Shown here one piece after another: positions 1 through 41,878 of a stretch of DNA of 64,000 nt (within the stretch, counting starts at the first letter, position 1; each line of letters opens with the position of its first letter). The translations under genes were made by a program, and so were the position numbers. Under the pieces are notes generated by a model that worked only from the letters and a program-made list of their open reading frames with translations, made no database searches and was not told where the DNA came from. Source of the stretch: a virus; the IMG/VR virus record IMGVR_UViG_3300045988_056936, positions 1-64,000 of that record, one strand, 5' to 3'.

Positions 1-112
1 AATTAACCTACTAACACCCTTCATTCAACACTACGTTATCTTTTGCCTAGAGGCAAGGATATTACTTAGCAAACTAAAAAAAAATAATAAAATGTTTCTA
101 AATATATAATAA

Positions 113-209
113 CTCGACATTGGAATTGGCATTGCTGACGTCATTGTTAGAATTGAAATAGCTGAGACCCGCATTGCCGCCATTATTCGCGTTGCTGCCT
201 ACTAGCAGT
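113..209 (-). repeat. DGR template repeat (TR). Non-coding copy rich in AAC/AAT codons, lying 75 bp past the tail-fibre stop codon
   Basis: About 97 nt homologous to 314-410 and to 28271-28367. I aligned base by base: about 22 mismatches to VR1 and about 20 to VR2, all at positions where this copy has A on the minus strand (T on plus), none at other bases. Read as peptide it gives ...GSNANNGGNAGLSYFNSNNDVSNANSIVGFR, the AAY-codon pattern typical of DGR templates. Confidence 0.85.
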
Positions 210-283
210 ACTTTTTTGCCAATCAACGGTTTTTAGAAGTAATATCCTACGATTTATCATCTAAATCGATTTTTATATTGTAT

Positions 284-3200
284 ATCTTAAGATACTCTAT
301 TCAGAGTCCTGAACCCGACAATGGAATCGGCACCGCCGACGTCATAGCTAGAATGGAAATAGCCGAGACCCGCATAGCCGCCATTACCCGCGCTGCCGCC
401 CACCAGCAGCGTGCGAAGCGCTGTGCTTCTTGCGTTGCAGTAATGGTAATCGCAAATATAAGTAGTAGCACTTCCTCCAACAGCGGATGGAATTATTTCA
501 GCGGTTTCACCTAAGTCAAATGCCTTAATATAACCATCAGATGCTACTTCGTATCCTGCAACGGTTTTCTCTCCAACTACGTCGGTAAATTCCGATACGT
601 TAGTAGTTGTATAGACAGTGCTAATCTCATTAGCAGCTGCTCTCACTATAACTACTCCGTCCAGGTTAGTCCAAATATCTCCAAATGGATTATCAAAACC
701 TCTCCATCTTGGAACTTTAAATGTCTTAGTCGCTACTGTATCTGTTCCGTTTGTTGCAGTACACTCTGGAATAACTAAATCTTTGATTCCAGTAAAGTTA
801 CCAATATCGTTACAGTAACCACATGGAGTAAGAGGATAGGTTCCATTATATCCAGACCAACTTGTAGCAGAGTTACTCCAGTCTGTAACTCCAGGACCAA
901 GTCCTCCTTGACGATAACCATCAGAAGTAAGCTCGGCATTATATGCAGCCTGAGAGTTAAAGTTAGCATATTCTATTACATAGTTCCAGTAGAATATCCA
1001 TTTATAATATTCATAGCATAATAATTCAGAACCTGCATTTGTAGCATAAGTTCTCATATTAGCTCTAGAAACATTAGTTCTAGGTTTTCCTAAATCGCTT
1101 CTAAAAGCATCTTTGGTCTCAAGTTCAGTAGTTAGATACCCATCGAATTGTGCTCTATTTCCACCACCTCTAAATGCTTCTGTAGTATTGACCACAGACA
1201 CAGCTTTAGGGGTTGCTGACACAGTATTATCAACGGTATTTCTATATGCGTCAATTAATAGTTCTGGTATTTCTATCCATGAATCATCAAGCTTTACTAG
1301 AGAAATTCTAACCCATCTTTTATTTCCATTAGAGCCTGATTTACCATAAAATTTAGGAGTGTGGACTCTTACAGTTCCATCAGTTCCATCGAGCACAGAA
1401 GGAGTACTTCCATCTTCTTTGTAAGCCCAATCATCCGGATATAAATAGTAATTTACCACACCGTTATTTGCTACACATCCTCTGTAAGCGGACTAGATAG
1501 GGAGGGATTTATGTAATAGTGGGTTTCCTATTCTAGTAAGGATAGGAGAAGATACGGTAATATCCCATTCTACTCCATAAGAGTATAAGTCTACGTTACT
1601 GCTTAACTCTGTGACTTGTTTGCTTAGACTCTATTGTTTTTTTTGTAATTCTTCCCAAGCAGTATTAAGAGCATTAAATTGTTTCTCTAACTTAGTACTA
1701 GTATCTGCCCACTATGCAGTCCCATCTTCAGAAAAGGTTAAAATCTATCCAAGTGCTCCTCCAGCAGGTATGTGTTTATTTCCAGAAGTAGTTGGGTGTA
1801 CATAATTATTTGCATTATCTGCAATACCACTAAGTTTCTGTTTTTCAGTTTCTGTGTAATTAGCTTCAGAAAGTCCTTTTCCTAATTCTTTATCTACCTT
1901 ACTTTCCAACTCCGTTTTAGTAGCTAAACCGCTTATATCCTAGTGTTCCTTTAAATAATTTTCATCATTCTATAACTAAGACACTTTAGTTGGAATGGCA
2001 CTAGATTTTGCATATGTCTAATCTATAACATTTCCAGAGCCATCATAGGTAGCCTTTAAGTCATATACGGTTTCTCCAACCTTTATAGATTTGATTGCTG
2101 CCATATCATTGTATTATTAAAGTTTCATCAACTACATCGTGATCTATTCCCTCTATGGAAGCAGTTAGGTCCTCAACAGCCTTCTACAATTCTGCTTTAG
2201 TAGCATAGTTCTTGAGAACTTCCTAGTCTACTCCAGAGCCTCCTCCTATACTTCCTCCAACAACTTTTACTGGTTTGGCAGAACTCTTAAACTGTCCTTC
2301 AATATAAATTGTTCCCATATTGTTTAAAATATTAATTGTTCATTTTCTCCATCTACCTCTACACTAGAACCTGGCTATAAAGCGTCTATCTTTTTCTACA
2401 ATTCGGCTACGGCCTAGCTAATTAGTTCTTCTACCTCAGCTTTGGTGTAGTATCTCTCTATAAGATATTCGCTCCTAACATATCCAGTATCTTGTAAATC
2501 TTTTTCTCCATAGGTGCAATAATAAGTATCTTCTTCAGTCTTACTATTCTCAACTAGGTCATCATAATCAGCTTGTGGTAAGCATACAAGTTTTGGTACT
2601 TCTTCAGTAATAGCAACTTGCTTGCCTCCAGCAAATAGCCTGTTATCTTCTGTGGTAAGTTTAACAGAACTCTCAATAACTTGCTCAGTTCCTGTTTCCT
2701 CAAAAGGTTCTCCAGTTGTTCCCTATTGTACTTCTTTTTCTCCAATTTTCTAAATAGTAATATCAGAAGTTTCTACTGATGTAGATTTCAAAAGCTCAGT
2801 GCTAAATTCTTTAGCAGCAGCAGCCTAATCATCCTGATATTTTTTCTAGGTAACAAATATGAAATCATCATCTCCGGTTTCAGGAGAGTCTCCCCTTAAA
2901 CTTTCTTTTGTTACGTAATCTTCGGCTATCTAATCTGATAAATCAGATAATGACTATTGAGTAGCATAAGTAGACTGAGCATTTTCCTTAGTAAGAAATT
3001 TGTCATCAACCTGCTAAATAGTATAATAAGCCTTAATATCTTCTGTAGTAACGTAGTTTCCAAGTTTTTGCAAACCTTGAACTATTTCATCAATCTACTT
3101 CTTGGAGTAATAATTTGTAGCAACCCAGGACTGATATTGATTGGTAGTATGATAATTCTAATCCAAATATTCCTTAGTAATATAAACCTTTGCATCATTT

Positions 3201-5778
3201 GTGACGTCATATACATAGTAATATGTATCAGGCTCTACCGTCCCTTCCTCTACTAACTTTAGATACTCTTCTTCAGTTAATGTTACTAAGTTCGGAATAT
3301 CCGATTCAGTAGCAATCTAATCTTCACCTATAAATAATCCTTCAGACCTAACGTCTACTACTAGCTAGCTCTCTCCCTCTACTACAGGAGATTTTATCTA
3401 TCCAACAGTGATGCTTTCTAAGGAACCATTCCCATCTACCTTTAAAGTCTTATCTAGCTCATCTTGAATAGCCTATTGGTCTTCGTCATACTATTTCTTT
3501 GTAACAAAGACAAAATCATCTCCTTCCATTCCTTCTCCTCTAAGACTTTCTTTGGTAACAAATATGTCATCAGTTTCTTCCTTAGTATAATGGTTAGATA
3601 AGGCTTTAGATAACAAGGACTCTGGGTCCTCTAAATCTAGATCAGTTTTAGGGGCATAATTCTCAGTTAACTCTTCAAGGGTAGCATACTTGGAAAGGTT
3701 AGAGATTGTCTAGTCTAAATCCGTTCTAATCTGTACGACAGTAGTATTTAGAGCTTTCTATTTCAACTATTCCTCTATCTTTTTACCCCATTCTGCTGAT
3801 AAGTAAAACTAATCATCATCTAGGCTGTCTTCATATATATAATAATATGTTTCTGCATGAAGATATGTTTTATCTTCGTCTATAGGTTTAAAATCTTCTG
3901 TGGTATTTTTAGACCATTCCTTATATTCAGCCTCTGTACAGGTGATTATCTAAATAGATTCATAAGAAGCTTTCCAACCTTCTTTGTATTTAATCTTAGA
4001 CTTATCTACTAGCATATAAATATTTCCGTTATCTATATTTGAAACGGTCATGCCTTGATAAGCATATTTCTCCGGAATAGAATATAATTCGTCTAAATTA
4101 TCGACTACTGTTCTATTATCAAGAGGTTTAGGAGTTTCTACGGTTAAAGCAACACCTAATGTAGCATCACCTGTATATTTAAATGCCATTATTGTGATAA
4201 AGTAAAGTTAATTTGATGAGGCAATGCTGAAGAATAAGTATCCTTCTTAGTCCATACTTTATAAGGAAATCCATTTATCTATTCAGTAGAAGTTTCCCAT
4301 CCACTTAAATCAACATTTAGGTATCCTAGTCCTCCATCTACTGTAAATGAATTTAGCTAAGTATTACTTCCAGGTAATTTTATAATAGCCTTTCCACTTA
4401 ATGAAAATGTAATAATTCCAGAAGATTGTCCAAATGGAACAAGACTCTATTTGATTAAACTATCTGTATTACCAGAATACCAAGGGTAGGTAGCAGTCAC
4501 CTATGCTGTAGTTGATATTGAACCAGCCTCCACCCTCTTGTCTGTAACCTCTCCCTTGTTGTTAATAAGATATTCTCCAGCAGCATAATTTACGGTACCA
4601 GAATGCACATAAACACCGATAGAATCATATGTTTCAGATTCTACAGGAGAATCATTATAGGTAATAGTTTCTTCTCTACCAGTTTCCTCTCCAGCATCAT
4701 TTTTTATAAATGTTAAAGTAGGGGTAAGTAAAGCGGATCCTACCTCCACAATCTAAGAGGTGAAGCTATAATACAACTAAGGATAAACCAAATCTCTAAC
4801 AACAGTAGGAAATAATAGAGTGTCTATAATCTCATTAAACGGCTTTCCTTTCAATTTTTCAACTGTAGTTCCTTGAATAACAGTAGAAGTAGTATCATCT
4901 GGAAGTTCAGTTTGATAAGTAGCTATAGTTTCTAAACTTGTCTATATATTTGTGATATTCTCAGTATTAGAATCTACTTTAGAATCAGTGTTCTTCTAAG
5001 CTTCCTATACTCCCTTAACTTCTTCCTTTACCTCTGTTAGAGATGGTTCCAGGTCTTTTACATATATTCCAGGTAGAACTACTGTGGAAGGTTCTCCTTC
5101 CTCCTCTACTGGAGGAATTTCCTACTGAATCAGATGTATTGCATTATCCTCCTACTAAGATAGAATTACTTCTAGAGTATTATCATCCTTTATTTCTATG
5201 GTTTTGGAGTTTCTTAGACTATTAGTTATCCAATTCTAGATGTTTTTGTCAACATCTATATTTTTGATAGACTCATTAATATCCTCTATTGCCTCATTAA
5301 TCTAGGTTATTTTCTCAGAAAGATTGTTTATGCCAGTTCTGTTAGATTCAATTTCTTCTTCAAGTTCTTCCTTAAGTACAGTAATAGAAGTTCTGATATT
5401 ACTTATATCAACTTTTATTTCCTCTATTTCTTCTGTATTAGCTTCGTACTAACTTATAAAGAATAAAGCATAATCTAAGGCATCTTTTACAGTATTGATA
5501 TTCTCTGCAACATCACTAGTATAAGTCCATTTCTATTCTATGTACTATACTAAATCTTTCTAGGCTTCTATAGTTCCTTCTATATTTCCCCAAAGAAGAC
5601 TCTACTCATCAGCGATACCTAGATTCTTTCTAACCTTAGCTCTTTCTAATTCAGTTCTATATTCTCCAAGATAGTTGTTTCTTAGGAGAGGTATAGGTTC
5701 ACTTTTTATTAAATGTCCTTTCTTTCCACAAGGCTTTATATCAGCATTGCTTACCGAAGTATAAATAGGCTGTATCAT
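284..5778 (-). CDS. Tail fibre / receptor-binding protein, possibly more than one gene, TAG-recoded, with the DGR variable region at the C-terminus. The 5' boundary is uncertain (candidate ATG at 5776-5778)
   Basis: ORF-track fragment 287..1459. My manual translation upstream continues in frame through TAG codons at 1493, 1631, 1712 and 1745 with no TAA or TGA. It yields ...YTETEKQKLSGIADNANNYVHPTTSGNKHIPAGGALG(Q)ILTF..., a phage tail-fibre-like motif. The C-terminus carries VR1. Confidence 0.45.
314..410 (-). repeat. DGR variable repeat VR1 at the extreme 3' end of the tail-fibre gene. GC-rich island
   Basis: Differs from TR only at TR adenines. Encodes ...LVGGSAGNGGYAGLGYFHSSYDVGGADSIVGFRTLN, then RVS and a TAA stop at 284-286. 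Its GC content stands out in an AT-rich genome. Confidence 0.85.
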
Positions 5779-5779
5779 T

Positions 5780-8700
5780 ATGATTCAATAATTGCTATTT
5801 AATAAATTCGTGATTATCTAATTTTACGGGTAGGTTAATAAAACAAATTAGATTCAAAATATCCTAATAATCTGGTCTATATCCCTTTCTAACCCTTTTA
5901 AGGAAATCCTCATACCTTTTAATAGCCTTTCTTTTAAGAGCATCCACAACCTATACGTTTATGTTCATGGTGATTGTCACAGAATCCACCGCAAGTGCGG
6001 AACATTGCTAACAATCTTTCAGCTTCCATGAATTGTTTAAAGCCTATTAAATAATCTATAATGTTAAGTGTCATCCAGATAAAATCTCTTGCAAATATAT
6101 CTGCATCATGTTCTCTAGTTAGACACTTATTTAATAAAGAGTCAAAGAGTTTCTTACAGTAGTTAATATAACACTATTGCAGATTTCCTGTAAAGAATAC
6201 ATCTACCTTACATTTTTTGATAGTAGTTCCTTCTATATTTCTCTCAAGGATTTCTTTTACAGTACATTCCTCTAGCTCTCCATCTACTTCTTTATATAGT
6301 TTCTCTCCATCAGTTATATAGATAGTTTCATAATACTCCTTGTATTCATCAGATGAATTTTCATACCATTTCATATTAGGAAGAATTATGTGGTCTACTA
6401 CATAATATCCATCTTCTTTCACCTTAAATGTACAAGAGTCTAAATCCTCTGTATGGTCATTGAGAAGTACGTCTATCAAAGTAGCATCTCCTATACTAAC
6501 TTTTATGATAGTATTTAGGGTAGCACTTTCACTATACTTATAAGAATCATAGGAAGTTACTACCTCTAAATCTTCATCAATATACTATCCATATTCCTTT
6601 GAAAAGTCTTCAATAGTTATTTCCCCGTTAATCTGGGTATGTATATCAATACTAAATTCCATATTATAATAATTAAGACTCAGTAGTAGGCCATTGACCA
6701 TATTGAGCAGGAGTAGAAAATGGTTTCCACTTACCTTCTTGTCGTATACGTCTAGACATAAAAACTGAACTAAATGATAAACTAATATCTTGAGGATAGT
6801 CTGTCCATGTATATGACTAACCTTCAGGAGTCGGTGGTAGACTATTTAATTTACCAGCTGGTTTCCCATTCCAATAATAATTATAGTCATATGCCTTAGT
6901 TGGAGTAACAGTCGTTGTTTCATGTCCTTCTAAATCTACATATAGAGGATTTCCATCCTCATCTGTTTTCTGCTTATACTCAATAACTGGAGTTATTCCC
7001 TCAGTTCTAGTGTATATATTCTAGATAATAGTAGAAACATCGCTTGCCACAATCTCATAAATAGTAGTTCCCTGAGATTCGTCAGCTCCCTAGAAAGTAA
7101 ATTTAGTTCTTTTCCAGATGTATGGATTCTCTTCAGTTGGAAGTTCAAAAGTATCAGTCCACTATTTAGTAGATAATTTTATCTCAGATTCTTCAGCAGT
7201 ATCAGCAGGTAAGTAATGAATCTTAATAATAATATTATTTACCGCTTCACTAGAACCAGAAAGATCTGACACCTATTTAAATAGTTTCTTTAAATCTTCT
7301 TCCACATTTGATTTGGAACCAGAAGCATTACTAATAATTACTGAACCATCTGAAATAGGATAAATCTATTGCTAATCCTTATTATATACAATTGTTCCAG
7401 TTGCCATATTAATGTATTTGTCTTATTTTGTCATTATATGGATTTCCATCATGAAGCTAAGCTAACTCTATTTCAGTTCTCTTTTCTTCTATATCCATTT
7501 GTCTATCTTTATATGTAGAATCAGATTGAGCTTTGAGCCAGTTAACTTTATATTCTAACTACATTTTCTGCTACTCTAATCCTAATCTCTATTCATCCAA
7601 ACTTTCTATCTTCTACTAAGCTTTCTATAGTTCTTGCTGTAACTGCTGTGCCTATTGTGAAGTTTCTTCCAGTTTTTCCTATAGCTGCTATAGCTAATTG
7701 TTTTCTTCTTTACGAATCTATACTGCTTTCTTAACCTTATATTTAAGGTCTGTAAGACTCTTAGCAGTTAGTGCTTCAAATATGATGTCAGGATCCATTT
7801 GCTGACTTTTAACAAACTCTGGAATAATAGCTTTAATAGTTTGTAAATCTTCCATTACTTCAGAGCTAGAAGTTATATGGATGTCATAATCAGTAACCGT
7901 AAAATACTCTGGAAGCGCTGTAAATATCTGCTAGTATTTATCTCCAAGTATAATAGTACCAGTCAATCCTTTCTTATATGTTATTTTAGCCTAGTTTAGA
8001 CTATCCAATAATATCTCACAAGTGATTAGGTCCATCTACTAGAAATAATGCTTGGTTACTATGTAAGAGTTAGTAACACCTTGCTTAATATTAGTTACAG
8101 CATCGTGAGTTTCTATTCCATTTAATCTTTCTCTAAATACTCCAGTTATAGATGATGTAGTTTGTTCTACTGATTGAATTGCTAATTCAATAGCCTATAC
8201 AGCCTAAGCTTTTAAGGTATCATCAAATCCATTGTATATCTAGTTAGGTGCTTGCGCTCCATCATTTCTTCCCTCCTAAGTGGAATCAATCCACATGATA
8301 CCACCCTTCTTGTATGCTAACCATTTCTACACTCTTTCTGGCCATTTTACGCCTAGGTTAGTAGGAAGCAATGACATATCCATGATTACTCCAGCAGTAC
8401 CGCTGTTAGCTATCAGGTTGTCCCTATAATAATTTAACAAGTCATATCTATCCTGTAGATGTGCACACTTTAATATCAGAGAGTACGGTTGTTGGGAACG
8501 ATTTAAGAAATATACCCCATTCACAGACAAAGAGCAGAAATTAGGATTATCTTTCGACCTCATAACAGTCTTGTCTAGACCTCTCAGAATATATATTTCT
8601 TCTCCAATTCTAATGGTATTGTATCTCTACATTACAAAATCGTCATCAGTTTCTATCCACTCTACATCATAAACAGGAATTAACTAAAATCTATGAGCAC

Positions 8701-9480
8701 TATATTCATTATCTGGATATCCAGGAATAGTTTCATGATTCTAATCTTCGTTTACTATAGTACAAGTGTCACCATAAACTCTTCTATAAACTGCAGCTGA
8801 ATCATCAGCTCTCCATTCATCTTTTAGTCTTTTCAAATCTTCTCTAGAGATTTCTTTTCCGTATTTAGCTAATATCTAGCTTTTACTCATCCATTTTCTA
8901 ACCACAACTCTATACGAATTTCTAACATATGGAGATTCTGGATTCCTATCTACGAAAGTATTTAAAGGATTCAGAACTTCTATTTCTATGTTAGTTCCAG
9001 AAGATGATGATTTTACTCTGAAAAATGTATAGCCAGTAATTAATAAATCTGTAAGTAACTATCGGAGTTTAGTTATTAAATCGGTTTCTCTAGACTGCAT
9101 AATATAATGAATAATATTCTATGCAGCTATCTCATATTGAGAAATAAAAGACTAATCAATGTCTTGAATAATTTTATCTAACTAAGTCTTCACGGCTTTA
9201 TCTGTAATATCTTTTCCGTCGATAAATTTCAGAATAGAATTACTTAAATGGTCTCTAAGAAATTTAACTATTCCTTTAGTTATTTCTAACTATTTTTCTC
9301 TAGTGATATTACTAATGGTATCTGAATCCTTACAAGAAATCTTCGGAAGGATAGGGGTTCCTAGATATTCTCCTACTAGAGCATCTACATGCTTTTTTAG
9401 TAATGGTGTAAATTCTACAGAAGTAGGACTACCTATTCCGAAGTTTTCTTCCAGGTAACGAAACTATTCTGGGTCTCTCT
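5780..9480 (-). CDS. Block of TAG-recoded virion/morphogenesis genes, not individually delimited. The ORF track is fragmented here because amber codons are sense codons
   Basis: All six frames lack long ORFs although the region is clearly coding: codon-like composition, minus-strand ORF fragments 6174..6479 and 8327..8563, and frequent CTA triplets on plus, which are TAG on minus. Confidence 0.3.
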
Positions 9481-9777
9481 TTCCGTTATAGTAATTATAG
9501 GCTTTCTATAATTCGTATTTATCATATACAAGCTCCGCAATAGCCTCGTTCGTCTTGTCTATCAGTTCTTTTTCTTTCATAACATAAATTATGCTGTTCT
9601 GGAGGAAGTTTAGTTGCATTATAGTATTTAACTCTTTGTAACTTCCTACTTCTTAATTCTTCCTTTATAAATGGGAGAAATTCTTCATCAGGTAAATCAG
9701 CTATAATGACTAAAGGCATCTCTGACCTATCAAAGTTAAACGATACCTTATAACCAACTGGATCTAGGTTCTGAATT

Positions 9778-12138
9778 TCAAGCCCACCTACGTATTCCAT
9801 TTTGTACAAGTCTCTCATATAACCTAGGATCACTTGTTTCAATTCTGTATGGGTCATCGTATTCATTTTTTTGTATGTTAGTTTCAAAAGTCTTAGAAGT
9901 TGGTATAACCCCAAATCTTTTGATTCCTCTCTCGTCGTAATAATAACCATAATCTTGGAATTGTTCAACTTCTTTTTCAACAAGCACTGGCTATCTTCCT
10001 GACAATTCCTAGTCTGCCAATTCTGTCATTCCCACAGCTGCTACAATATCGAATTTACCTTTATTCTCATCATTATATCCAGTAAATTGGTCTAACATTT
10101 CTTCAAACCATATAGTATGACAGAAATCCTCAATAAAGGCTGCTGTCAAATCAGTATGTTGTTCTATAATAGTTTTGGTAGCGGGTGTTCCGTACTATTT
10201 AGTAGTTCCATTCTTGACGTCTGTTAGAGTAGCTCTAGGTCTTTTCATAAAGTAGTTTAAACAACCCTTTTCTCTAGCCCAGGTAATCATACCTACACGG
10301 GTAGCTTCTATGTTTATTCTACAATTATAGTATCTAGCTAAACACATAGCTATTTTATAGGCTTCTCTAATGTCATTAGGTCTGTCTTTATACATAGCAA
10401 CATACTACGGTTCGTTTAGACCAAATGCTCTTCTTTTTATAGTTATACAGAAATCAGAAGGATCTCTTGTTTCTTTTGAAGTTTGACTAGCTCCTATATC
10501 AATACCGTCTATTCCTGCAACATATAAATCATGCATTTCTTTGTACGCTGGAGATTCAAATTCTTCTCCCCTTTCCTCGGCTTCCTATCTAAGTTTATCC
10601 ATCTACTCTTTATACAAATCAGACCATACAGGATGTTCAAGTATTTTTACTTTTCCGTTAATATTAGGAATCCATTTAAAACCATCTATATTATCCTAGG
10701 TGTGTTTATTATTTTTATAGAAATAGTCTATGTATCCAGATTCTGGTCTTGGTCCTATTTTCTTAAGTCTTATATTAGCTAACTGGTCCGCAATAAGAAT
10801 CTTGTTGAACTTGTTAACACCTTCAAGATTAAATGCTTCTTCTGCATTCCAACATCGTTCAGCACACTTCTTTAGATAGTCATCTGGAACTGCTAATAAA
10901 TTGTCGCGCTCTTCCTATAGATACTTCTTATATTCTACTGTATTACATACACCTCTATGGTCCATGTATTCTGAATTTAGAGACTAGACAAAATATGGAA
11001 TGAAGAACCCACTTTCAATAGTAGTCCCATCCTGGGTATAATTATGTCTAAATGGAAGAACTTTGTAAGCTTTTGGATTATAATATATCTTCTTAAGACC
11101 TGCTAATGGAGCGCCCATATCACCACCAGTACCTCCAAATAACATTGTTCCACGAGGTTTACCTTGAACTTCACAAAGCTCTTGTCCCTACACTACAGCA
11201 GTATCTAGTCCAGGCCAAGATCCTGCTTCATCATATATTAATAAGTCAACACGGTCTCCACGAATATTAGATGCCTTAGCTCCGTTTATTCCAACTACTT
11301 CCGATTTAAATCCAACATCCTCAAACTGTCCGTTTACCTTAATCTGTTTACCGGACTTCTTTCTTAAGTCTTGGTCAATCAAACGTAGTTTGAAGAATCC
11401 TCCTCCTGTACAAGTATTCAAGAATGTTAAAGCATTATCAAACTTACTAAAAGTACCTTTAAGGAAGGTATCATTAAAACAGGTAATCATTACTCTGCTT
11501 CTTCTGATTACTGAATACATTCTTGCAGATAAGGATGCATTTATTTCAGAGAATCCAATAGAACGAGCTTTCATAAGAGCTGCGTGTTTATGCAGAACTC
11601 TAGCCATCTATAGATAATGAAAGAACATATAATGAGATGCGAAAAATATAGGAAAGTCACTACTTGTTCCTTCTCCAGATGCCTTGTTATCATCAATAAT
11701 AGGAAGCTAGTAGAAGTTTAGGAAGAAATAGTTATCTCCAGTAATTGTATAACCATTAACAGTCATTCCATATTTACATCTTCTATACTATTCCTTCCAA
11801 AACTCATTATATCTCTTACTATCTTTTAGATATGGACAATACTTTCCAGTTTTTCTATATACTTCTCTGGTCTCAGTAAACCAATCTGGGTCGAAATCAA
11901 GACCATGTGTTTCATCTATTGGTCTATATCCAGTTATTTCATAAGATAAAGTAGGGTCAAATACCTCTATCTTATCTCCTCTTTTTACATCCCAATAATC
12001 AGCATTTTTGCCTCTTTCCTCTCTTATCTTCTATACTAGTTCTCTAGCTTCTTTGGCATCCTCTTTTTGTTCTTTCTCTCTTACCTAATCTACTATATTC
12101 TAGATTTCTTCAGGTAATATTTTTTTCTTTCTAGGCAT
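9778..12138 (-). CDS. terL: Terminase large subunit (TAG-recoded)
   Basis: ORF fragments 11188..11607 (..LIYDEAG.. Walker-B-like terminase ATPase motif), 10195..10395 and 9778..9987 share one frame. ATG at 12138-12136 and TGA at 9778-9780. In-frame TAGs link the fragments. Confidence 0.55.
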
Positions 12139-13520
12139 AATTAAAAGTCTCCTGGGTCAAAGCCGTCTGTAGCTCCACCTCTTACAGTAGATTGTTCTGT
12201 AAGCTCTTTCTTAACCTGCTCTTCTAGTGTTACTAATTCTTCATGAACTTTATGAAGAGTAGCCATTTCTTTCATTACCTTTTCAGCTTGAAAGACGGGT
12301 TTGCCATTATTATCACGTTCATTTAAATCTACTATAGTATCAAAATAATCAATAAACTAGTCAGCTGCTCTTTTAGCTGCTTCTAGAAGTTTTATTGATT
12401 TGTTAGAATCCTACAATGCTCGGTATTTTCTACAGGCTTCCCTGAATAACGGGTCATTAAATTCGGATTCAGATAGTCCAGAGTCACTAATAGCTTCATC
12501 ATGTCTTTCATGTTCTGAATATTGGCTATAGGGACTCTTCCAATCAATAGCTAGATAAATGTAAGATAATTCTCTAGTTACTCGTTCCTTGTCAACAGAT
12601 TTATCCCTCTGTATCAAAGCCTTAAACTCTTTAACTAGAAGAAGCTCTGGTTCATTTATTTCTAACTATTTAGTTAAAGTGTTATAATTAAATACATTCA
12701 TACTCATCAATCATTAACATTAACATCTTTAATCTTTTTATTTCATTTTAGAACCGCATTTACTTACTTTCATTTTAGAACCACAAGCATCTTTCTTAGC
12801 ATACTTTGTTCTATCTGGAACCCATTTTCCATTTTTAAAGTTTCCCTTGTGTCCTCTATTTGCCATGACCTCCTAGTCATTATATTTATTAATAGATACA
12901 GAATCTCTGGATGCTTCATCCTTTGCAGATTTCATATCCTTTTTATACTAAGCTCTTCCAGCCTTGAACTTGTCAACTTCATTAGCTTTCTTAGTAACCT
13001 TAGTTCCTTTCTATGCTTTTTGGCAAGCTTTGCAGATTCTTCCTCCCTGTTTAAAATAAACAAGTTCCTCTCCTTCTGGGCATACTCCTTTTAATTTTTT
13101 ATAGTATTCTAGTTTAGCTCCAAGTCTAGCCATAACTCCGCCTTGCATCTTCTACATAAATTCTTGATACTTGGCTTTGATTCCATCTTCTCCAAGCTAC
13201 TCAGCGTAAGCCTATAAATCTTGCTCTGATTGTAGTTGTATCCCTTGTGCTTGGGCATCTTGTATCAAGTATGCCATGAATGCTTTCTGTAATTCTTCCT
13301 AATTAGCCATTACTCTTCTACTTTAATTAAATCCTTTGTATTAAATACTGCTTCCTGCATTAATCCAGAATCAGTAAACCATCTACATCTTAGTCCTCGT
13401 AATCCTTGGTTATCTTTAAATAAAGCTGCTTCTCTTCTTAGAACAAGCATAACTGGAGAGTGCATTACTTTACACTACCGTAAAGTAACACAATCCCCAG
13501 GCTTAAAATAAACTTTTTCA

Positions 13521-14123
13521 TCAATTGTTTCCATGCTTCAATTCGTCTCTTCTTTCAGTTAGTTTCTCATTAACTACAGCCATGATTCTATTCTCATTAA
13601 CTACTACAAATCCTAGTTTATAGAATGGAACCATACATTCACTAGCTATTGTATAAAATACAATATCTCCAGGCTTCAAGAACTCACACTTATGTCCTAC
13701 TTCTATCACAGTTCCTACCTTAATAAATTGTTGCTCTTCTTCAATTTCTCCAGTCTCATTAGATTTATAAGTAGGAGTAAATCCACCTAAATCAGTAATA
13801 AGACCGCTTTTAGTAGTTTTTATTTTTTGGAATGGGTTTTGTTCAAAGGGTTTAATTAATGCATACCCATACATCGGCATAATTTCAACTCCATTCATAT
13901 CGTTAGATAATGATTTAGCGTAATCCTCTAGTGCCTGATTATGTTTAGAGAATTTATCTTCTAACTCATCTACTGCGGTATTAAACTTCTCTTGTTTTTC
14001 TCTTAATAATGTTTGGTCTGCAGCCTCTCCATTTAAAATAAAATGTTCTCCCGTACCTTCCATTCCGGTTAATGATAGTGCTAGTTTTTCGTTACTGTTT
14101 AATTCTGTTCTTAAAGTTTCCAT
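13521..14123 (-). CDS. GroES-like co-chaperonin fold protein (T4 gp31-like?) with an N-terminal coiled-coil extension
   Basis: The C-terminal ...KSGLITDLGG...VGTVIEVG...LKPGDIVFY...IMAVVNE resembles the GroES/gp31 mobile-loop and beta-barrel pattern. Confidence 0.35.
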   Translation of the reverse strand: METLRTELNSNEKLALSLTGMEGTGEHFILNGEAADQTLLREKQEKFNTAVDELEDKFSKHNQALEDYAKSLSNDMNGVEIMPMYGYALIKPFEQNPFQKIKTTKSGLITDLGGFTPTYKSNETGEIEEEQQFIKVGTVIEVGHKCEFLKPGDIVFYTIASECMVPFYKLGFVVVNENRIMAVVNEKLTERRDELKHGNN

Positions 14124-14131
14124 AATTCATT

Positions 14132-14664
14132 TTACCATTTACATAAATCACAATGTTCATCTTCAATTCTTGTTTTATTCTCTAGTATACAACCACATTC
14201 ATCGCACACTTCCCCAACAGATGTTTGTAATTTATGGGAACAAGTGTCACAAATTTTTAATCTTTTGGTTGCCAAATCTTGATTTATTCCGAATATATTG
14301 AAATATATACTTTTCAATATTGTTAAAGGTTTAATAAATATTGCTTTAATCCATTTCCATATCATATCTTCTTCCTCCTTCTCGTTTATATTTTGGACAG
14401 TAAGTATATAATGCTTATCTGGTTTATATAATATAGGAGTTCCATAGATTACCATTTCCCTGCTGGGCAATGTTTCTTTTCGTTTGGAATCTTCTTCTCT
14501 AGTAAACATCCACATCCCTTTATATACCCTTCTTTAGGGCTTATACTTATATCATTATTCTTTGGATTTAGATACAAATGCCCATTACATAATCCATTAT
14601 CTTGGTCACATATTGGGCAGCGTCTACATATCTCAAATCTTTCTTCTATTTCCTCTAGTGTCAT
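14132..14664 (-). CDS. Two overlapping Cys-rich zinc-ribbon ORFs (CxxC...CxxC repeats). Possibly one frameshifted gene
   Basis: ORFs 14132..14515 and 14449..14664 overlap by 67 nt in different frames. Both carry CxxC pairs (CDTCSHK..CDECGC..CDLCKW; CRRCPICD..CNGH..CGC..HCPAG). Confidence 0.35.
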
Positions 14665-14666
14665 AA

Positions 14667-15581
14667 TTAATATTCAATACGTTGACGTTTTCTTTTATTT
14701 TCTGCCAATATAGATTCCTTCTTGTAGAAGGCTAGCATTTTTATAACCTCATCTTTTAGGTATGGCAAGTGATATACTGTCATATTGTCATTATGATCGA
14801 AATGTACCAAAACCAAATCCTCTATTTCAAACTCTGGATTTTTCTTTTGAATCATCCAAGCATAAGTACTTAATTGTAAAGTATAGTGCCAGTAATTAAC
14901 ATCATCTAAATTATTTAGAGGATATTTCATCTTAACAGAAGTTTTGGTTTTAGAATTGAAGAAACTCTTAGTTTCTATTTTCTTATTGGTCTTCCAGTCT
15001 CCTATAATTATCTTATTTCCCCTTTTAACTAATAAGTCAATCTGTCCTGCTATTCTTAGCTTTCCATCATCCGATACTCTAGATATTAAATACTCAGGAT
15101 ATACACCATTCTCTAAGTCTAATTCATTGTGGTCTTTTATACACTCAAACTTGCCACCTATTTGATATTTACTAAGGTCTATGTTCTGTTTCTTTTTATA
15201 GAAAGAGTTTTCCAAATCTGCATGGATTTTAGTTCCCCTCTCGCATGAGTTTCTATTCTCTAAATCCCAAGCATCTAAGATAGCTTGTTGCTCTTTATTA
15301 AACTCGTCTTCTGTAATGTTATGAAGTTCAAGTAGAACTTTATCAAATTTCTTAGTGTTCAACAAAGACTTTTTTTCTATAGCCCAATCTTCTTTAGGTA
15401 AGAGTTTCTCTAGTGCTTTATATGCTGACCAGAACTCCTTATCAAATGGTTGGGTGAAAGAATGAATTAAAGTCGTTACAGATATAAACTTCTGCTCTGG
15501 CTTTGTAACATCATAATAAATATGAGCTTCTTCCTCAAAAGCTATGTTCCCATTTTGTTTTGTAATTTTACTTTTGTCCAT
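14667..15581 (-). CDS. PD-(D/E)XK-superfamily nuclease (RecB/Cas4/YqaJ-like exonuclease)
   Basis: C-terminal ...GQIDLLVKRGNKIIIGDWKTNKK matches the D..(D/E)xK core. The N-terminal H..Y motif is also present. Confidence 0.5.
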   Translation of the reverse strand: MDKSKITKQNGNIAFEEEAHIYYDVTKPEQKFISVTTLIHSFTQPFDKEFWSAYKALEKLLPKEDWAIEKKSLLNTKKFDKVLLELHNITEDEFNKEQQAILDAWDLENRNSCERGTKIHADLENSFYKKKQNIDLSKYQIGGKFECIKDHNELDLENGVYPEYLISRVSDDGKLRIAGQIDLLVKRGNKIIIGDWKTNKKIETKSFFNSKTKTSVKMKYPLNNLDDVNYWHYTLQLSTYAWMIQKKNPEFEIEDLVLVHFDHNDNMTVYHLPYLKDEVIKMLAFYKKESILAENKRKRQRIEY

Positions 15582-15695
15582 TAGTCATAATTCATTTAAT
15601 CATTTATCACATTTATCTATATTTATTTGATACTTTTCAAGTATATTAATATTCTTTGTAAGATACAAATCAATAAATAATACATTATATTAAAA

Positions 15696-16037
15696 ATGTC
15701 TAACAGTAAGAAAATTACAACATTTGGGTGTCCAATTTTCAAAAATGGGTCGGGCATTCACATTAAAGAGAAGAACAGAGGCAAATTTACAGCATCTGCC
15801 AAGGCAGCAGGAGAATCTGTACAAGAACACGCTAAGCATGTACTAAACAATCCTAACGCTACCCCTCTTTAGAAGAAGCGAGCTAATTTTGCTAGAAATG
15901 CTTCTAAATGGAAACACGAAGATGGGGCTAAGATACATAAACCGAGTGGACATAGGTCTATTCTAGATAATGGATGGATTCCTACTACTAGATTAAAGAA
16001 GGGAACTTATGGATTTATTAAAACTAAGAAACGATGA
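15696..16037 (+). CDS. Small plus-strand gene embedded in the minus block, TAG-recoded (MSNSKKITTFGCPIFKNGSGIHIKEK...)
   Basis: ATG at 15696. My manual translation reads through in-frame TAGs and ends at TGA near 16037. It is not called by the ORF track because of the amber codons. Confidence 0.3.
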
Positions 16038-16310
16038 AAAACATTATTAAGTGCATTAAAGAGATTGTATTAAGAATATATCTATATTTACTATTTATAT
16101 TTAAAAAGTAACATGGACTATAACAAAGCAACTTTACACGCGGCAACAGGTCGTACTCTCTTACTTCCTGGATGGAGAGGATATTTTTATTGGGATTATT
16201 CTAAAAAGGAATTGAATTTCAGAAACGGAGATTATCATTTAGATAATAAATAGCTTAGAGAAAAGGGAGTCATGGAGAGAACTGATTGGTACTATATTAT
16301 ATAACAAAAT

Positions 16311-16350
16311 AGGCGAGCCTAGAGATTAGGTTCGCCTATTTTTATTTAAC
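16311..16350 (+). terminator. Rho-independent terminator-like hairpin (taggcga...tcgccta followed by a T-run)
   Basis: A 7-bp perfect stem followed by TTTTTATTT, immediately after the small plus-strand ORFs at 15696-16310. Confidence 0.45.
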
Positions 16351-17504
16351 ATTATACTTTGTATCATAAGTACAAGTGATTCTATTTATACCATCCTCCC
16401 ACCAAGGTTTATCTGATGGCTATCTAATACCACTTGGGATGGTTATTGTAGGAGTAGAAGTTTCTACTATAGCATCTACTATTTTAAATAATGTATCCAA
16501 GTCAAATTCTGGAAATTCATTATGTAAGTTTGTCAATGTCTTTTTAAAGTCTATCATATCCCTCAAATGTATTATCAATTATTGCTTTTTCTAGTGTAGT
16601 GTCTTTATATAGTCCATTTTTAATTAGATTTCTAACTGAATTGTCAACTACATTCCATATATCAATCAGTAATGATTTATTCTCCGGAACACTTCTAAGT
16701 GTACTTTCTAAATATCCGGCTTTTATCATATTTATTAGTTGACCGTTAATAAAGACTTCAAATTTAAATTCTTTATCCATATATTTTAGTATATTACACT
16801 TAGTCTATTTAATTCATCTAGGTAATCTAGAAACCATTGTTCATTTTGTTTTCCTTCTTCTGCAACAATCTCAATTAAAGATTCTGCTGCTAGGAGTATA
16901 GTTTCAGATAACTCTTTTAAATTTGGCTTAGTTAGTTCATTGTATTTATCAGTCAAGTTTAACATAATCCATCCAGTCTTTTATATATGATTTACATTCC
17001 TCTAAATCTGGATAGATACTTGCTATAGTGCAACCTGTTTTTGGATTCCTAAAATGATGGAGTTTTGCTTCCTCATTTTTCTCCTCTTCTATATTTCTAT
17101 TTAATGTTCTATTCCAGTAGTTGTATTTCTCATCTAGCATTTCCTTATCACACTCCTCCAATATTTTCATATTGGGATTACTCATTATTTTGTCATACTT
17201 TCTTTTTAAATTAGAAACTTTGACAACATCATTACCATTCAATACGACTGCACACTGTTTCATTTCACTACTTTATAAGTACATATCTTACCTATCTGCT
17301 TTCCTTGAATACTTATTTGTGGAAGAAAGTAGCAGGCTTGATTCTCAAATTCTTGAGGTACAAATATGTAATCAAATCTACATCCAACTACCTTATCGCA
17401 AACTTTATTCCAATCATCTCCCTCTTCAATAATAAGGGTCTTAGCTCCTGTTGGAGTTACAGCATAATTCTCATTTAAATTTATCATAACTATTAATTTT
17501 GGCG

Positions 17505-17576
17505 TTGCCCTACTAGGATTCGAACCCAGACTAAATGATTTAGAGTCATCTGTGCTGACCATTACACCATAGGGCA
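17505..17576 (-). tRNA. Amber-suppressor tRNA, anticodon CUA, tRNA-Gln-derived
   Basis: Manual cloverleaf: acceptor TGCCCTA/TAGGGCA (U1-A72) with discriminator A; D-arm GGTGTAATGGTC; anticodon stem GATGA/TCATT with loop CTCTAAA (U33, CUA, A37); T-arm CTGGG-TTCGAAT-CCTAG. The D-arm and acceptor are near-identical to tRNA-Gln(UUG) at 32536. It sits at the 5' head of the TAG-rich minus-strand block. Confidence 0.8.
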
Positions 17577-18240
17577 GTATTTATTTCTCTTTTAGAGATT
17601 TATTCTCCGCTGCCAATTTCTCTAGTTCTTTCCTTAGCTGTTCGTTTTCGTGAAATAAAGCCTACATGGTTGCATTTACATTAGCAAGGAGTATTCTTAT
17701 TTGAGCTATTTGTTCATACATATGCTTTCAGTTGTTCTATTTTCATAGTTACCACATTAGATAATGCCATTCTGAATTTAGTAATTCCAGCTCTTACTGA
17801 TTCCAATTTTCCACTTTCCAAACATTCTTGAATTTTATTTAGTTCGGATTCCCCTAGATATTCGCAGACATCTATAAATAAATCATCATCTAAAGATTCT
17901 AAGTATTTCTGGAATTTGCCTACTTCTTCATTAGCTAGACAGCTTTCCTCTTTCTATCTCTCATAAGATATTAATAAGAATAAAGAATCATCTGTAGATT
18001 CCGCTTTAATGGTTAGACCATTACTTGATAGATAATACTCCTAGTTCTTATTAATTGCATCAACGAGATTCTTAAACTCGTCCTAATTTAGTAATGTTTC
18101 TAAGTCTGTAATCATAATTGTTTCTTTTTTAGTTATATACAACAATACCTTCTGAAAAGTTAAATACAAAGTTAAAAAATTCTAATTCTAATATTATACA
18201 TATTTCATTTAGTTATCCGCAAATGGGTACAGGTACTTTA

Positions 18241-18249
18241 TATAAATAG
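18241..18249 (+). promoter_or_regulatory. TATAAATA(G) motif, copy 1 (T4-late-promoter-like box)
   Basis: ttatataaatagcc, about 190 bp upstream of ORF 18434. Confidence 0.25.
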
Positions 18250-18433
18250 CCCCCTGGGGGTTTAATAAATTCGGAATTTATATACAGGTGAAAATTACCT
18301 AGATTCCGAAAATTATATGAGAGACTGTTATGGCGGTCCACAACCCCTTTAGTCCCCCCCTGTATATTGATATAAAACTAAAACAAAAACAAAAGTAACT
18401 CACAGTATTAACAAATTAAAAATTTTTAGTATT

Positions 18434-19245: not shown

Positions 19246-19975
19246 AAATGCCCATATGAACTCCATCATTGGAACATTGGTCAACGGAGAAATCAACAAC
19301 AAAACAAAAAAAATCAAAACCGAGTTAACTTTTGTAGTAGTTTTAGTTTTTATGTCTGGCTGATAGGAAAGACTATCATTTCTAGTAAAATCGTGTATGT
19401 TTCACGTGAAAATATGGAGAGTAAGGAGAAGAATGTTCCACAAACTCAAAGGCAGATTTTCCTACTTTTTCCAGTTTTCAAAAAATCGCCAGTAGGACGA
19501 GTTTTATAACTCATACTACAATGATTATTTACTCTAACATTAGCCTATAAAAAGGCAACAAAAAGCGGGGTTACGCAGATAGCCCAATATCCGAAAATAA
19601 CTGCTATTAATGAAAATGAGAGTTCGCAAACTTATCTCATGAGTAAGGAGGATTGAGCTATAAGATTGGTCACTTATAGCAATATATGAAAGTACTGCTG
19701 ACATACAAGTAGACCATGTATGTCATATTTTTATATGTTATGCAATTGTATTAGAAGTTGCCTGGTATAAGCCGCTAGATTAATAAGGCTAGCTGATAAG
19801 AGGATACCTCATAAGGGTATATTTCCTACCTCGAACTCAGTCGCAAGAATATGGATTAGCTACCTATATTCTTAGTGAACGTTAGTAACGTAGCTATTTG
19901 ATTTTCAGTATAGGAAACTGAGAATTAAGTAGTTGAATAACTCTCTATCTTATACTAGTTGCCAAGATAGAGTTT

Positions 19976-20045
19976 TCCCCATTAGTATAATGCATTGCGC
20001 CTTCCTCTAAAGAAGGAGATTCTGGTTCAAACCCGGAGTGGGGAA
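19976..20045 (+). tRNA. Second CUA-anticodon (amber-suppressor) tRNA, Gln-like acceptor, atypical 3-bp D-stem
   Basis: Acceptor TCCCCAT/GTGGGGA (U1-A72, U7·G66) with discriminator A; anticodon stem CCTTC/GAAGG with loop CTCTAAA (CUA); T-arm TCTGG-TTCAAAC-CCGGA. The D-arm is weak (GTA/TGC). Confidence 0.45.
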
Positions 20046-20851
20046 CTTAGTATTTGAGGACTACAGCTACTTGTAGGCTCTATTTGCTGTTAAGGACTAT
20101 AATGGGTACGCCCAGAGACTATGTAATTGTTGTGAAACAATTCAAAGGAGAGTGGCACAGGAAGGTCTTTTGATAGTGTTCATTTTTTATCCCAACAGCG
20201 GTGGGGATATTTTTAAAACTCAGCCTAGGAGAGTATAAAATACCATCTGATGAGACTAGGACGAAATATACTTTGTATATAATGGTATAACTAATTAAAA
20301 CTAAGAAGATGAAAAAGAGATATATTATTCCAGAGGAACTGCATTTTGCTTCTGCTAGCTGTGGATTTGAATGTAATAATTATGACGAGGTATTAGCGTT
20401 TGCTGGATATTTTCTATCTATCGGGTGTTCCTTTGAGGTTTCGGATCTCTATATCGAACCAAAGGGGAATTTAATTCCTTTAAAACAGTCGAACGAAGAA
20501 AGGGATGTATGGGAATATCTCATGCTAGAGTTTTAATAACTAAAACATAAATATTATGAGCAAATTGACAAAAAAGAAAACAGAAACTCTCTATGCCAAA
20601 ATGGTAAGAGAAGAAAAAGCTATGCAAATTGCTGCTCAATATGGTCTTCAATATGAAGTACTTCAGTCTATTAAGGCTGGATGTACTCCAGAAGAAGCCT
20701 TACGTGAATGGGATTTAGTATAGCTTTCTTTAAAAAACTTAATAACTTTCCAAGTCATTGAGGACACCAGTTTCTTATATGTTACGCATGAGAGGTCGAA
20801 CATACTCCTTGCGATATAAGTTTTAGGTGTAAAATGCAATACTAGTTATAT

Positions 20852-21187
20852 ATGAAAGAGATAAAAATTCTAGAAACAACAAAAGTTCTCTCTGATAGAG
20901 AGGCTGATTTACTTTGTTCCGTATTATGGTCTTTAGGTATTTATCCAGAGATTACAGCACTTGAAAGGAAAAATAGAAACATTACACTGGCGAGTATTCT
21001 TCCAGAAATGCAACCTAGGACAGCTAGCCGTATTAGAGCTATGTTGGATGATCAAGTTTATATCTCTCTCAACATTTTCATGGAAAACTATTCTTGGCGT
21101 GATTTCATGAAAATGCCTGGTGTTGGAAGGAAATCGCTAAGTGATTTAAGATCAGTTTTGCAAAAGTACGGATACAAAACATTCTAA
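20852..21187 (+). CDS. Small protein whose C-terminus resembles the RNA polymerase alpha-subunit C-terminal domain HhH motif (..MPGVGRKSLSDLRSVLQKYGY..)
   Basis: Motif resemblance only. Confidence 0.25.
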   Translation: MKEIKILETTKVLSDREADLLCSVLWSLGIYPEITALERKNRNITLASILPEMQPRTASRIRAMLDDQVYISLNIFMENYSWRDFMKMPGVGRKSLSDLRSVLQKYGYKTF

Positions 21188-21200
21188 CTCGACTTCGCGA

Positions 21201-21209
21201 GTATAAATA
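21201..21209 (+). promoter_or_regulatory. cGaGTATAAATA motif, copy 4, upstream of recoded gene 21316..22507
   Basis: ttcgcgagtataaataggc. Confidence 0.3.
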
Positions 21210-21315
21210 GGCTTTAGGCGGAGAGCGGTAGGTAGAATAGTCTACCTACGTAGTGTAAAATACTTGCTATTTAGCAAACAAATGTGTAGTATTCTATAAA
21301 TAAAAATTAAATATT

Positions 21316-37889: not shown

Positions 37890-37919
37890 TCCACGGATTC
37901 TAATTTTAAATTTAAAAAT

Positions 37920-41872: not shown

Positions 41873-41878
41873 CATAAT

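Follow-up and report, generated by a model that had tools for sequence, protein, structure and literature searches.

The supE allele (glnV44) of Escherichia coli is a tRNA-Gln with the anticodon CUA that reads UAG and is charged by the ordinary GlnRS; it arose from a cellular tRNA through one base change and suppresses only weakly. In crAss-like phages, recoding of TAG to Gln accompanied by suppressor tRNAs has been described, mostly affecting late genes (PMC7886860; 10.1101/2021.08.26.457843), and the presence of Gln at TAG has been confirmed by metaproteomics in two crAss-like phages other than the one studied here (PMC9523058). Lak, Jade, Agate and other recoded gut phages encode suppressor tRNAs and 'code-change modules', for which temporal control of late genes has been proposed (10.1101/2021.08.26.457843). 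A large-genome family of crAss-like phages has been reported with genomes of 145-192 kb that are rich in introns and inteins and encode many tRNAs, including suppressors (PMC7886860). The phenomenon is, therefore, already known: it is published in the same phage group, backed by proteomics, and homologous tRNAs are annotated in RefSeq crAss-like genomes.

The window, by which we mean the whole 64,000-nt stretch of IMG/VR record IMGVR_UViG_3300045988_056936 that was analysed, derives from a distant member of this group. Two Crassvirales hallmark genes, the large terminase (TerL) and the portal, were identified by homology (Table 1). The TerL protein shares 23-29% identity with crAss-like large terminases, with E values down to 1e-37; the best match among the ~100-kb crAss-like phages in the collection was 29%, and one unannotated 55-kb gut-phage record reached 45%. 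The contigs that encode close homologues measure 180-195 kb, and intein/homing-endonuclease domains are present in one of the TerL homologues (P0003). Together, these features match a distantly related crAss-like phage (Crassvirales) with a genome of ~185 kb, which fits the published description of the large-genome 'zeta' group.

Table 1. Features of the window discussed in the text, with the basis of each assignment
Feature	Coordinates	Strand	Basis
TAG-rich packaging/structural block (TerL, portal, tail-like proteins)	287..13322	-	ORF coverage, homology, codon counts
Portal, 32 TAG	7409-9580	-	PHROG 6547, E=9e-48
TerL, 786 aa, 16 TAG	9778-12135	-	Homology
TAG-free genes: PD-(D/E)XK exonuclease, 127-aa ORF, GroES-like protein	13521..15581	-	PHROGs, TAG counts
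Two conserved opposite-strand genes that set the tRNA cluster apart from the remaining minus-strand genes	15696..16304	+	ORF map, relatives
Small genes downstream of type a (104, 59, 78, 71 aa), almost TAG-free	16342..17263	-	ORF map
Type-a CUA tRNA, tRNA-Gln-type body	17505..17576	-	ARAGORN, Rfam, covariation, Bacteroidales scaffold match
46-aa coiled-coil-like ORF, 1 TAG, ends 4 nt before type a	17581..17721	-	ORF map
133-aa gene, 3 in-frame TAG, upstream of type a	17714..18115	-	ORF map; orthologues beside the tRNA in L001-L005
Divergent intergenic region between minus- and plus-strand blocks	18116..18433		Alignment with L002, L004, L005
RAGATH-14 RNA, 30 nt upstream of type b	19753..19946	+	Rfam, 183.3 bits
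Type-b CUA tRNA, separate Gln-derived lineage	19976..20046	+	ARAGORN; Rfam, 43.9 bits
Phage tRNA-Gln(UUG) used for comparison	32536..about 32608	+	ARAGORN, Rfam

ARAGORN predicted 27 tRNAs in the window, and CUA is the anticodon of two: a minus-strand tRNA at 17504-17576, with cta at position 34, and a plus-strand tRNA at 19976-20046. We refer to these as type a and type b. The sequence-only reading of this DNA had described the former as a minus-strand tRNA with the anticodon loop CTCTAAA and the anticodon CUA, and had named tRNAscan-SE or ARAGORN as the check. The anticodon of the computed structure is indeed CUA, and the Rfam tRNA model (RF00005) independently spans the locus end to end, covering model positions 1-71 with a score of 66.3 bits (E=1.8e-12) against a gathering score of 29. 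This is the sixth best of the 28 tRNA hits in the window. Type a is, therefore, confirmed as a real CUA tRNA.

The first part of the type-a sequence reads TGCCCTA TG GTGT AATGGTCA GCAC A GATGA CTCTAAA TCATT and the remainder TAGT CTGGG TTCGAAT CCTAG TAGGGCA A, which together form a standard 72-nt cloverleaf with the pair U1-A72, discriminator A73, the D-arm GGTGTAATGGT and a 4-nt variable loop. G18-G19 are present, the T-loop is TTCGAAT and the terminal CCA is not encoded. The 7-nt anticodon loop CUCUAAA (C32-U33-C34-U35-A36-A37-A38) places CUA at positions 34-36 behind U33, as expected of an amber suppressor, and in-frame UAG codons are abundant in the same genome. Single-strand minimum free energy folding did not recover the cloverleaf, which is usual for tRNAs, and was not used as evidence. 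A standard-code ORF that overlaps the tRNA (17260-17562) was dismissed as an artefact, as its N-terminus is the translated tRNA gene and the relatives contain no homologue.

ARAGORN labelled type a automatically as 'tRNA-Pyl', a label applied to any cta anticodon, and this is the sole support for reading the gene as a pyrrolysine tRNA. Pyrrolysine tRNAs have a small D-loop, a 6-bp anticodon stem and a 3-nt variable loop, lack G18-G19, and are accompanied by pylS and pylBCD. The type-a cloverleaf is canonical: two bases link the acceptor stem to the D stem, the anticodon stem has 5 bp, G18-G19 are present and the T-loop is TTCGAAT, features that known tRNA-Pyl lacks. In addition, pyl genes were not found among the window proteins scanned; we, therefore, rejected assignment to the tRNA-Pyl class. 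Decay of type a into a pseudogene is opposed by the strong covariation and conservation described below, and the chance that either of these two readings is correct is negligible.

Type a occurs in the same orientation, between the same flanking genes, in five related contigs (L001-L005) that were retrieved through the terminase. A pattern search identified the tRNA in 52 IMG/VR contigs of 96-225 kb, as 15 sequence variants, and the exact sequence of the window was found in 26 other loci. In an alignment of 13 distinct variants, 99.6% of cells were consistent with cloverleaf pairing, and 9 of the 21 pairs were altered on both sides, for example G2-C71 to C-G, C3-G70 to U-A, U29-A41 to A-U or G-C, and U49-A63 to A-U. 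None of 500 shuffles reached the observed values, and when the pairing partners were slid only ~47% remained paired. It should be noted that part of the D-arm and of the anticodon arm was prescribed by the search pattern, so that invariance in these regions is uninformative; the anticodon loop CUCUAAA was identical in all fetched variants, but the pattern demanded that loop. The double-sided changes show that type a is a conserved and structurally constrained gene under selection. In two contigs of ~100 kb (L021 and L037), the same tRNA is located in a tRNA array.

The coding capacity of the minus strand depends on how TAG is read. Within positions 1-18000, the fraction of the minus strand covered by ORFs of 150 aa or longer is 0.18 under the standard code and 0.80 with TAG read-through, compared with 0.19 and 0.26 for read-through of TGA and TAA, respectively. 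From 19 kb onwards, most of the plus strand can be read with the standard code. In eight late genes, TAG occurs in frame 114 times, versus 67 CAA and 28 CAG codons, which makes TAG the commonest Gln codon of the late genes (114/209 Gln-type codons) if TAG means Gln. As a stop codon TAG is nearly unused, ending only 2 of 48 plus-strand ORFs.

The meaning of TAG was tested on aligned codons. When TerL was aligned from six phages, the columns in which at least one phage has TAG contain, in the remaining phages, CAA 52 times, CAG 15 times, GAA 21 times and AAA 13 times. Across all late orthologues, compared with three lineages, the 179 TAG sites of the window face Q in 69 cases, K in 17 and E in 13. 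The log-likelihood at these sites was -431 for Q, with E next best (-633) and H at -647; in the reverse direction, at 201 sites, it was -530 for Q versus -701 for K. Gln outscores all other amino acids, the margin being about 200 natural-log units. The substitution tables were built from the same alignments, and codons were compared at the DNA level, which avoids circularity. CAA is two mutations away from TAG and yet is its main partner, which argues that the signal reflects amino-acid equivalence and not mutational closeness. A further comparison, in which Q occupied 11-12 of the 16 TerL TAG sites in 120 database homologues, was discarded as circular, because the contigs concerned fail standard-code translation and their proteins were, therefore, called with TAG as Q.

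These results show that TAG encodes Gln in the packaging and structural genes of the minus strand, which bears out the sequence-only proposal that TAG is read as Gln. In-frame TAG is also present in a small number of plus-strand genes: a PD-(D/E)XK endonuclease (25206-25667) has 3 in-frame TAG codons, a GIY-YIG endonuclease (about 37917-38555) has 6, and an unassigned 396-aa ORF (21317-22507) has 7. At least two of the TAG-bearing plus-strand genes, both endonucleases, are confirmed by Pfam domain matches. In practical terms, TAG must be annotated as Gln for the late block of the minus strand and for a few homing-endonuclease genes of the plus strand; the standard code breaks the terminase, portal and tail genes into fragments. 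The locus adds a well-supported example to the large-genome crAss-like group, in which the Gln assignment comes from the DNA level and not from pre-translated code-15 proteins.

The body of type a was compared with the tRNA-Gln(UUG) of the same phage. Both tRNAs have U1-A72, G2-C71 and A73 and are identical at nt 5-19 (CTATGGTGTAATGGT). The orientation of pairs 3-70 and 4-69 is reversed (C-G versus G-C), and there are further differences in the anticodon and T stems. The near-identity to this tRNA that had been described for the acceptor stem and D-arm consequently holds for the D-arm but not for the whole molecule, of which only 52/73 positions (71%) are identical, versus 69% for tRNA-Thr. 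Neither of the features from which a Gln identity had originally been argued is specific to Gln when taken singly. The pair U1-A72 is also present in the tRNA-Lys, tRNA-Asn and tRNA-Thr of the window and in the second CUA tRNA. When the D-arm motif TATGGTGTAATGGTNAGCAC was scanned in a genome collection (GTDB) with one genome per species, at least 120 matches were obtained; ~97 of the 120 matches listed are tRNA-His(GUG) genes of Patescibacteria, 14 are tRNA-Gln and 4 are CUA tRNAs. We, therefore, rejected the D-arm motif alone as a Gln marker. Among the matches listed, however, every carrier of the D-arm that also has U1 and A73 is a tRNA-Gln(UUG) or a CUA tRNA, so that by sequence the three features together appear confined to tRNA-Gln(UUG) genes and CUA suppressors within that set. 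The argument from a tRNA-Gln body thus stands, in this combined form.

Additional support for a Gln-type body comes from cellular tRNAs. Type a combines U1-A72, A73, the D-arm TGGTGTAATGGTNAGCAC, a 4-nt variable loop and a length of 72 nt, as in tRNA-Gln of the Bacteroidales type. Four truly chromosomal tRNA-Gln(UUG) genes were identified in Bacteroidales (Bacteroides, Equimonas, Prevotellamassilia and Alloprevotella), their chromosomal status being judged from ordinary cellular neighbours, such as the genes for enolase, for a sulfate permease and for an ABC-ATPase carrying a UvrA-type domain. Like type a, these cellular tRNAs are 72 nt long, with U1-A72, G2-C71, A73 and the T-loop TTCGAAT, and they are identical to it at nt 5-19 and 21-25 and in the variable loop AGTC. 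They differ from type a in having UUG instead of CUA, at positions 32, 37 and 38, and in the anticodon and T stems, which leaves an overall identity of about 73-75%. The acceptor stem of the suppressor of L005 is nearly the same as that of three of the four. A tRNA-Gln(CUG) of Mycobacterium phage Wildcat is 83% identical to type a. The corresponding tRNAs of the crAss-like phages cr7_1 (NC_055895) and cr60_1 (NC_055891), which use code 15, are annotated as 'tRNA-Gln' and are 84-86% identical to type a over the full length; we did not accept these RefSeq labels as evidence of identity, as both are themselves CUA tRNAs.

The same comparisons raise the question of whether the residue that type a inserts at UAG could be a different one (for example His, Trp, Lys, Glu or Tyr), its Gln-like body being coincidental. 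The frequency of the D-arm motif in tRNA-His(GUG) is compatible with this, as are the scores for body similarity, in which the best Gln match (78%) and the best Patescibacteria His match (77%) cannot alone separate Gln from His. Bacillus phage tRNA-Trp genes are 82-83% identical over partial length, and K and E are the next commonest partners of TAG. However, the codon-level likelihood prefers Gln over E, H and K in both directions, CAA remains the commonest partner in spite of its mutational distance, and Gln at TAG is known from the proteomics of two other phages of the group (PMC9523058). Type a also lacks the His marks G-1 and C73, and has U1-A72 and A73 as in cellular Bacteroidales tRNA-Gln. 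We consider insertion of a residue other than Gln highly improbable, and the sequence comparisons support a Gln-type body for type a.

The E. coli GlnRS identity set consists of G73, G2-C71, G3-C70, G10, and U35 and G36 of the anticodon. Type a deviates from this set, with A73 and C-G at pair 3-70, while G10 and U35 are present. Among the relatives, G2-C71 and G3-C70 are not kept, and half of the type-a variants have C-G at pair 2-71. Since the cellular Bacteroidales tRNA-Gln also has A73, the E. coli identity set may not apply to the host. The anticodon loop of type a differs from that of tRNA-Gln(UUG) at positions 32, 34, 36, 37 and 38, and its last three nucleotides are A36-A37-A38. In tRNAs that read codons starting with U, i6A37 is usually found in this context, which suggests that type a may be a candidate for the modification. 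Type a differs from supE in several respects: it is a diverged, phage-borne gene with A73 instead of G73 and variable pairs 2-71 and 3-70, and its anticodon loop has been remodelled (CUCUAAA versus UUUUGGU in Bacteroidales tRNA-Gln).

Taken together, we consider it very probable that type a is a functional, phage-encoded amber suppressor tRNA built on a Bacteroidales tRNA-Gln scaffold in a crAss-like phage. In the mechanism that we propose, transcription of type a would begin in the divergent intergenic region and probably include the 133-aa gene upstream. Host RNase P and a 3' processing enzyme would trim the tRNA, and its CCA end would be added by host enzymes. The host glutamine-charging system would load it with Gln, either through GlnRS or through a non-discriminating GluRS together with GatCAB. 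E. coli GlnRS tolerates CUA anticodons, and the non-discriminating GluRS and GatCAB system recognises U1-A72. Once charged, type a would compete at UAG with release factor 1, such that the 114 in-frame TAG codons in the genes for terminase, portal and tail proteins could be read as Gln. GlnRS, release factors and other code-change proteins were not found among the 20 plus-strand window proteins scanned. The locus is, in this respect, unlike the code-change modules of Lak, Jade, Agate and other recoded gut phages, and the neighbours of type a have no recognisable function.

The window shares with the code-15 crAss-like phages the taxonomic order and a TAG-to-Gln recoding that is concentrated in late genes (PMC7886860). 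It differs from phages such as cr7_1 and cr60_1 in its genome of ~185 kb, its distant TerL and the second suppressor lineage that accompanies the first; moreover, type a is positioned beside a divergent junction and not in a tRNA array. GC skew and AT skew both flip sign between 16-18 kb and 18-20 kb. On the minus strand, the intergenic region is followed by the 133-aa gene, the 46-aa ORF, type a, a 75-aa ORF, the small genes of 104, 59, 78 and 71 aa, the two opposite-strand genes, the TAG-free genes and, from 13322, the TAG-rich genes.

Part of this arrangement is conserved. The 104-, 59- and 71-aa genes are kept in relatives, and define a small cluster with the 133-aa gene and type a in which the tRNA is the second or third element. 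The 133-aa gene has 113 homologues, all unannotated and apparently all from relatives of this phage, on contigs of up to ~194 kb. Neither Pfam nor PHROGs gave a match for its product. AlphaFold predicts the structure with confidence (pLDDT 89.7), and a structure search with the model returned no PDB match with E<0.1 and, in BFVD, only uncharacterised viral proteins. The 46-aa ORF is restricted to the clade of the window and shows synonymous and conservative changes over about 30 loci, and the 75-aa ORF directly after type a is likewise found only in this clade. The first of the two opposite-strand genes has a TAG-rich orthologue in relatives, with 15 TAG in 248 aa in L002.

The tRNA had originally been placed at the head of a recoded late operon, with suppressor supply possibly coupled to late expression. 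Type a does lie near the start of the late-direction arm, on the same strand as the TAG-rich genes. However, the convergent plus-strand genes and three TAG-free genes intervene, and the TAG-rich genes begin only at 13322, such that type a and the terminase and portal genes are probably on different transcripts, judging from gene order. In addition, the presence of a second CUA tRNA on the other strand and of plus-strand genes with in-frame TAG indicates that suppressor supply is not simply tied to one late operon.

It is possible that type a belongs to a unit of its own, transcribed by the host RNA polymerase in early or middle infection, and acts as a code-setting switch that precedes the late genes and is not co-transcribed with them. 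The conserved opposite-strand genes, together with a terminator-like hairpin on the minus strand at 15800-15780, separate the tRNA cluster from the late block. The intergenic region contains several non-coding blocks that are conserved across lineages. One of them, TTTG-N19-TATTGTTG, faces the 133-aa gene and type a; read by eye, it hints at a Bacteroidetes -33/-7 promoter with one mismatch. Directly upstream of the same tRNA in L021 and L037, we observed TTTG-N20-TACCTTTG. An early unit would also agree with the published model, which puts suppressor production before late-gene translation (10.1101/2021.08.26.457843). Against this, the gene just upstream of type a in the cluster itself contains three TAG codons, and the promoter motifs were identified by eye, the exact Bacteroidetes promoter pattern giving 1 match versus 2 expected by chance. 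A scan for sigma-70 promoters and terminators likewise showed no enrichment (25 promoter-like sites versus 29 expected). On this evidence, we give separate early transcription of type a about an even chance.

Transcription of type b, the second CUA tRNA, points away from the late block, and the gene lies ahead of a large tRNA array. A relative carries type b with the anticodon UUG at 85% identity, which indicates a Gln-derived origin for this tRNA too. Both its origin and its position ahead of the array on the plus strand would fit a scenario in which type b is the main decoder of TAG and type a is redundant or a back-up. Several observations argue against this. Type b lacks G18-G19, and its Rfam score is well below that of type a (43.9 versus 66.3 bits). 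Type a is present in every related locus long enough for both tRNAs, although most of these loci were fetched by the type-a sequence itself, whereas type b varies in its anticodon or is degenerate. We, therefore, regard type b as unlikely to be the principal decoder.

Among close relatives, the type-b anticodon is CUA, UUA or UUG, and the gene is degenerate in L013 and L018. Relatives with a UUA version of type b gave no sign of TAA recoding, as in-frame TAA accounts for 0.20% of the aligned residues in each of the two groups. These codons lie almost exclusively in short, apparently non-coding frames.

An RNA of the RAGATH-14 family precedes type b. The spacing between the two is 26-55 nt, both in the window and in each of the 21 scanned related loci where they were detected together, whatever the anticodon of the tRNA. 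In L004, type b is present and no RAGATH-14 match reaches the gathering threshold, and in one contig of ~98 kb RAGATH-14 occurs without an adjacent tRNA. No paper on RAGATH-14 was found in the literature collection searched, and we know of no reported function for this RNA.

Conceptually, the type-a locus changes nothing about the known system. The more promising leads are the coexistence of two suppressor lineages, the anticodon switching of type b and the pairing of type b with RAGATH-14. We tentatively speculate, with considerable doubt, that this phage family runs a two-suppressor system, in which a stable type a is complemented by an anticodon-switching type b on which RAGATH-14 might act in cis. 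If RAGATH-14 were to control the production or processing of type b, the motif would gain a function and the code switch would gain a regulatory handle.

A second tRNA with the anticodon CUA (type b) is encoded in the window, on the strand opposite to the amber suppressor tRNA with the tRNA-Gln body (type a) and approximately 2.4 kb away from it. The type-b tRNA lacks G18-G19, and was also found at the related loci L004, L008, L009, L011, L013, L015, L018, L020, L024, L029, L038, L045, L056, L136, L142 and L160. The type-b anticodon varies across close relatives: besides CUA it can be UUG (Gln), as in the 85% identical copy at L160, or UUA, of the ochre type, and the gene is degenerate at L013 and L018. 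The type-b tRNA belongs to a tRNA-Gln lineage in which the anticodon is in the course of switching. Counts of in-frame TAA revealed no excess in the relatives whose type-b tRNA has UUA.

The type-b tRNA is preceded by a RAGATH-14 RNA. Scanning of related loci detected the RNA together with the tRNA at 21 of them; at every one of these, as in the window, the RNA lies 26-55 nt upstream of the tRNA, and this pairing is independent of the tRNA anticodon. At L004, the type-b tRNA is present and RAGATH-14 had no match at threshold. L185, a contig of ~98 kb, carries RAGATH-14 without an adjacent tRNA. Two ribozymes, a RAGATH-1 hammerhead and a Pistol, are both located shortly 3' of the type-b tRNA, the latter 60 nt upstream of a 396-aa ORF, and the same ribozymes are present in several relatives.

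Features of the window and two orthologues in related loci
Feature	Position	Strand	Match or property	In-frame TAG
Opposite-strand gene	15696-16037	+	113 aa	1
Orthologue, L002	4523-5266	-
Orthologue, L004	5667-6590	-
Divergent intergenic region	18116-18433
RAGATH-14 RNA (RF03145)	19753-19946	+	Rfam, 183 bits
Type-b tRNA	19976-20046	+	Rfam tRNA model, 43.9 bits
RAGATH-1 hammerhead ribozyme	20217-20286	+	68.8 bits
Pistol ribozyme	21187-21255	+	63.3 bits
396-aa ORF, no assigned identity	21317-22507	+		7
PD-(D/E)XK endonuclease	25206-25667	+	Pfam PDDEXK_5, E=2e-23	3
ORF, no assigned identity	36484-37308	+		3
GIY-YIG endonuclease	37917-38555	+	E=6e-13	6
tRNA-model match	39623-39695	+	Rfam, 39.5 bits
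tmRNA-model match	41312-41875	+	Rfam, 66.2 bits (gathering score 47)

In the interior of the tRNA array, four plus-strand genes contain in-frame TAG codons, two of them encoding endonucleases; recoding is therefore not restricted to the minus-strand late block. A conserved gene adjoins the type-a tRNA cluster on the opposite strand. The window copy is short and may be truncated; orthologues in relatives are 248-308 aa in length with 9-15 in-frame TAG.

The divergent intergenic region includes blocks conserved across lineages, ACAGGGGGGGACTAAAGGGGTTGTGGACC, CCCCAGGGGGCTATTTATATAAAGTACC and TTTTTTAACTTTG-N19-TATTGTTGTATATAAC, which are shared by lineages whose neighbouring protein is otherwise just 35-60% identical. 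The signs of both GC skew and AT skew flip at this region. The conserved blocks could represent promoters, an origin of replication or structured RNA.

Two further RNA-model matches were observed. The tmRNA-model match is 564 nt long, compared with 374 positions in the model, and its 3' end falls 4 nt before tRNA-Ile; ARAGORN called no tmRNA at this position. The anticodon loop of the tRNA-model match was read as UGC (Ala), and ARAGORN called no tRNA there.

Finally, contigs carrying suppressor tRNAs of this phage family appear in the species-genome collection under bacterial names, as MAG contigs of conflicting taxa: DXLM01000001.1 (L136/L114; 186,052 bp) as 'Bacteroides sp.', L142 as 'Clostridium sp.', L160 as 'Acholeplasmataceae' and L099 as 'Tenericutes'. 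These contigs are probably misbinned phage genomes.
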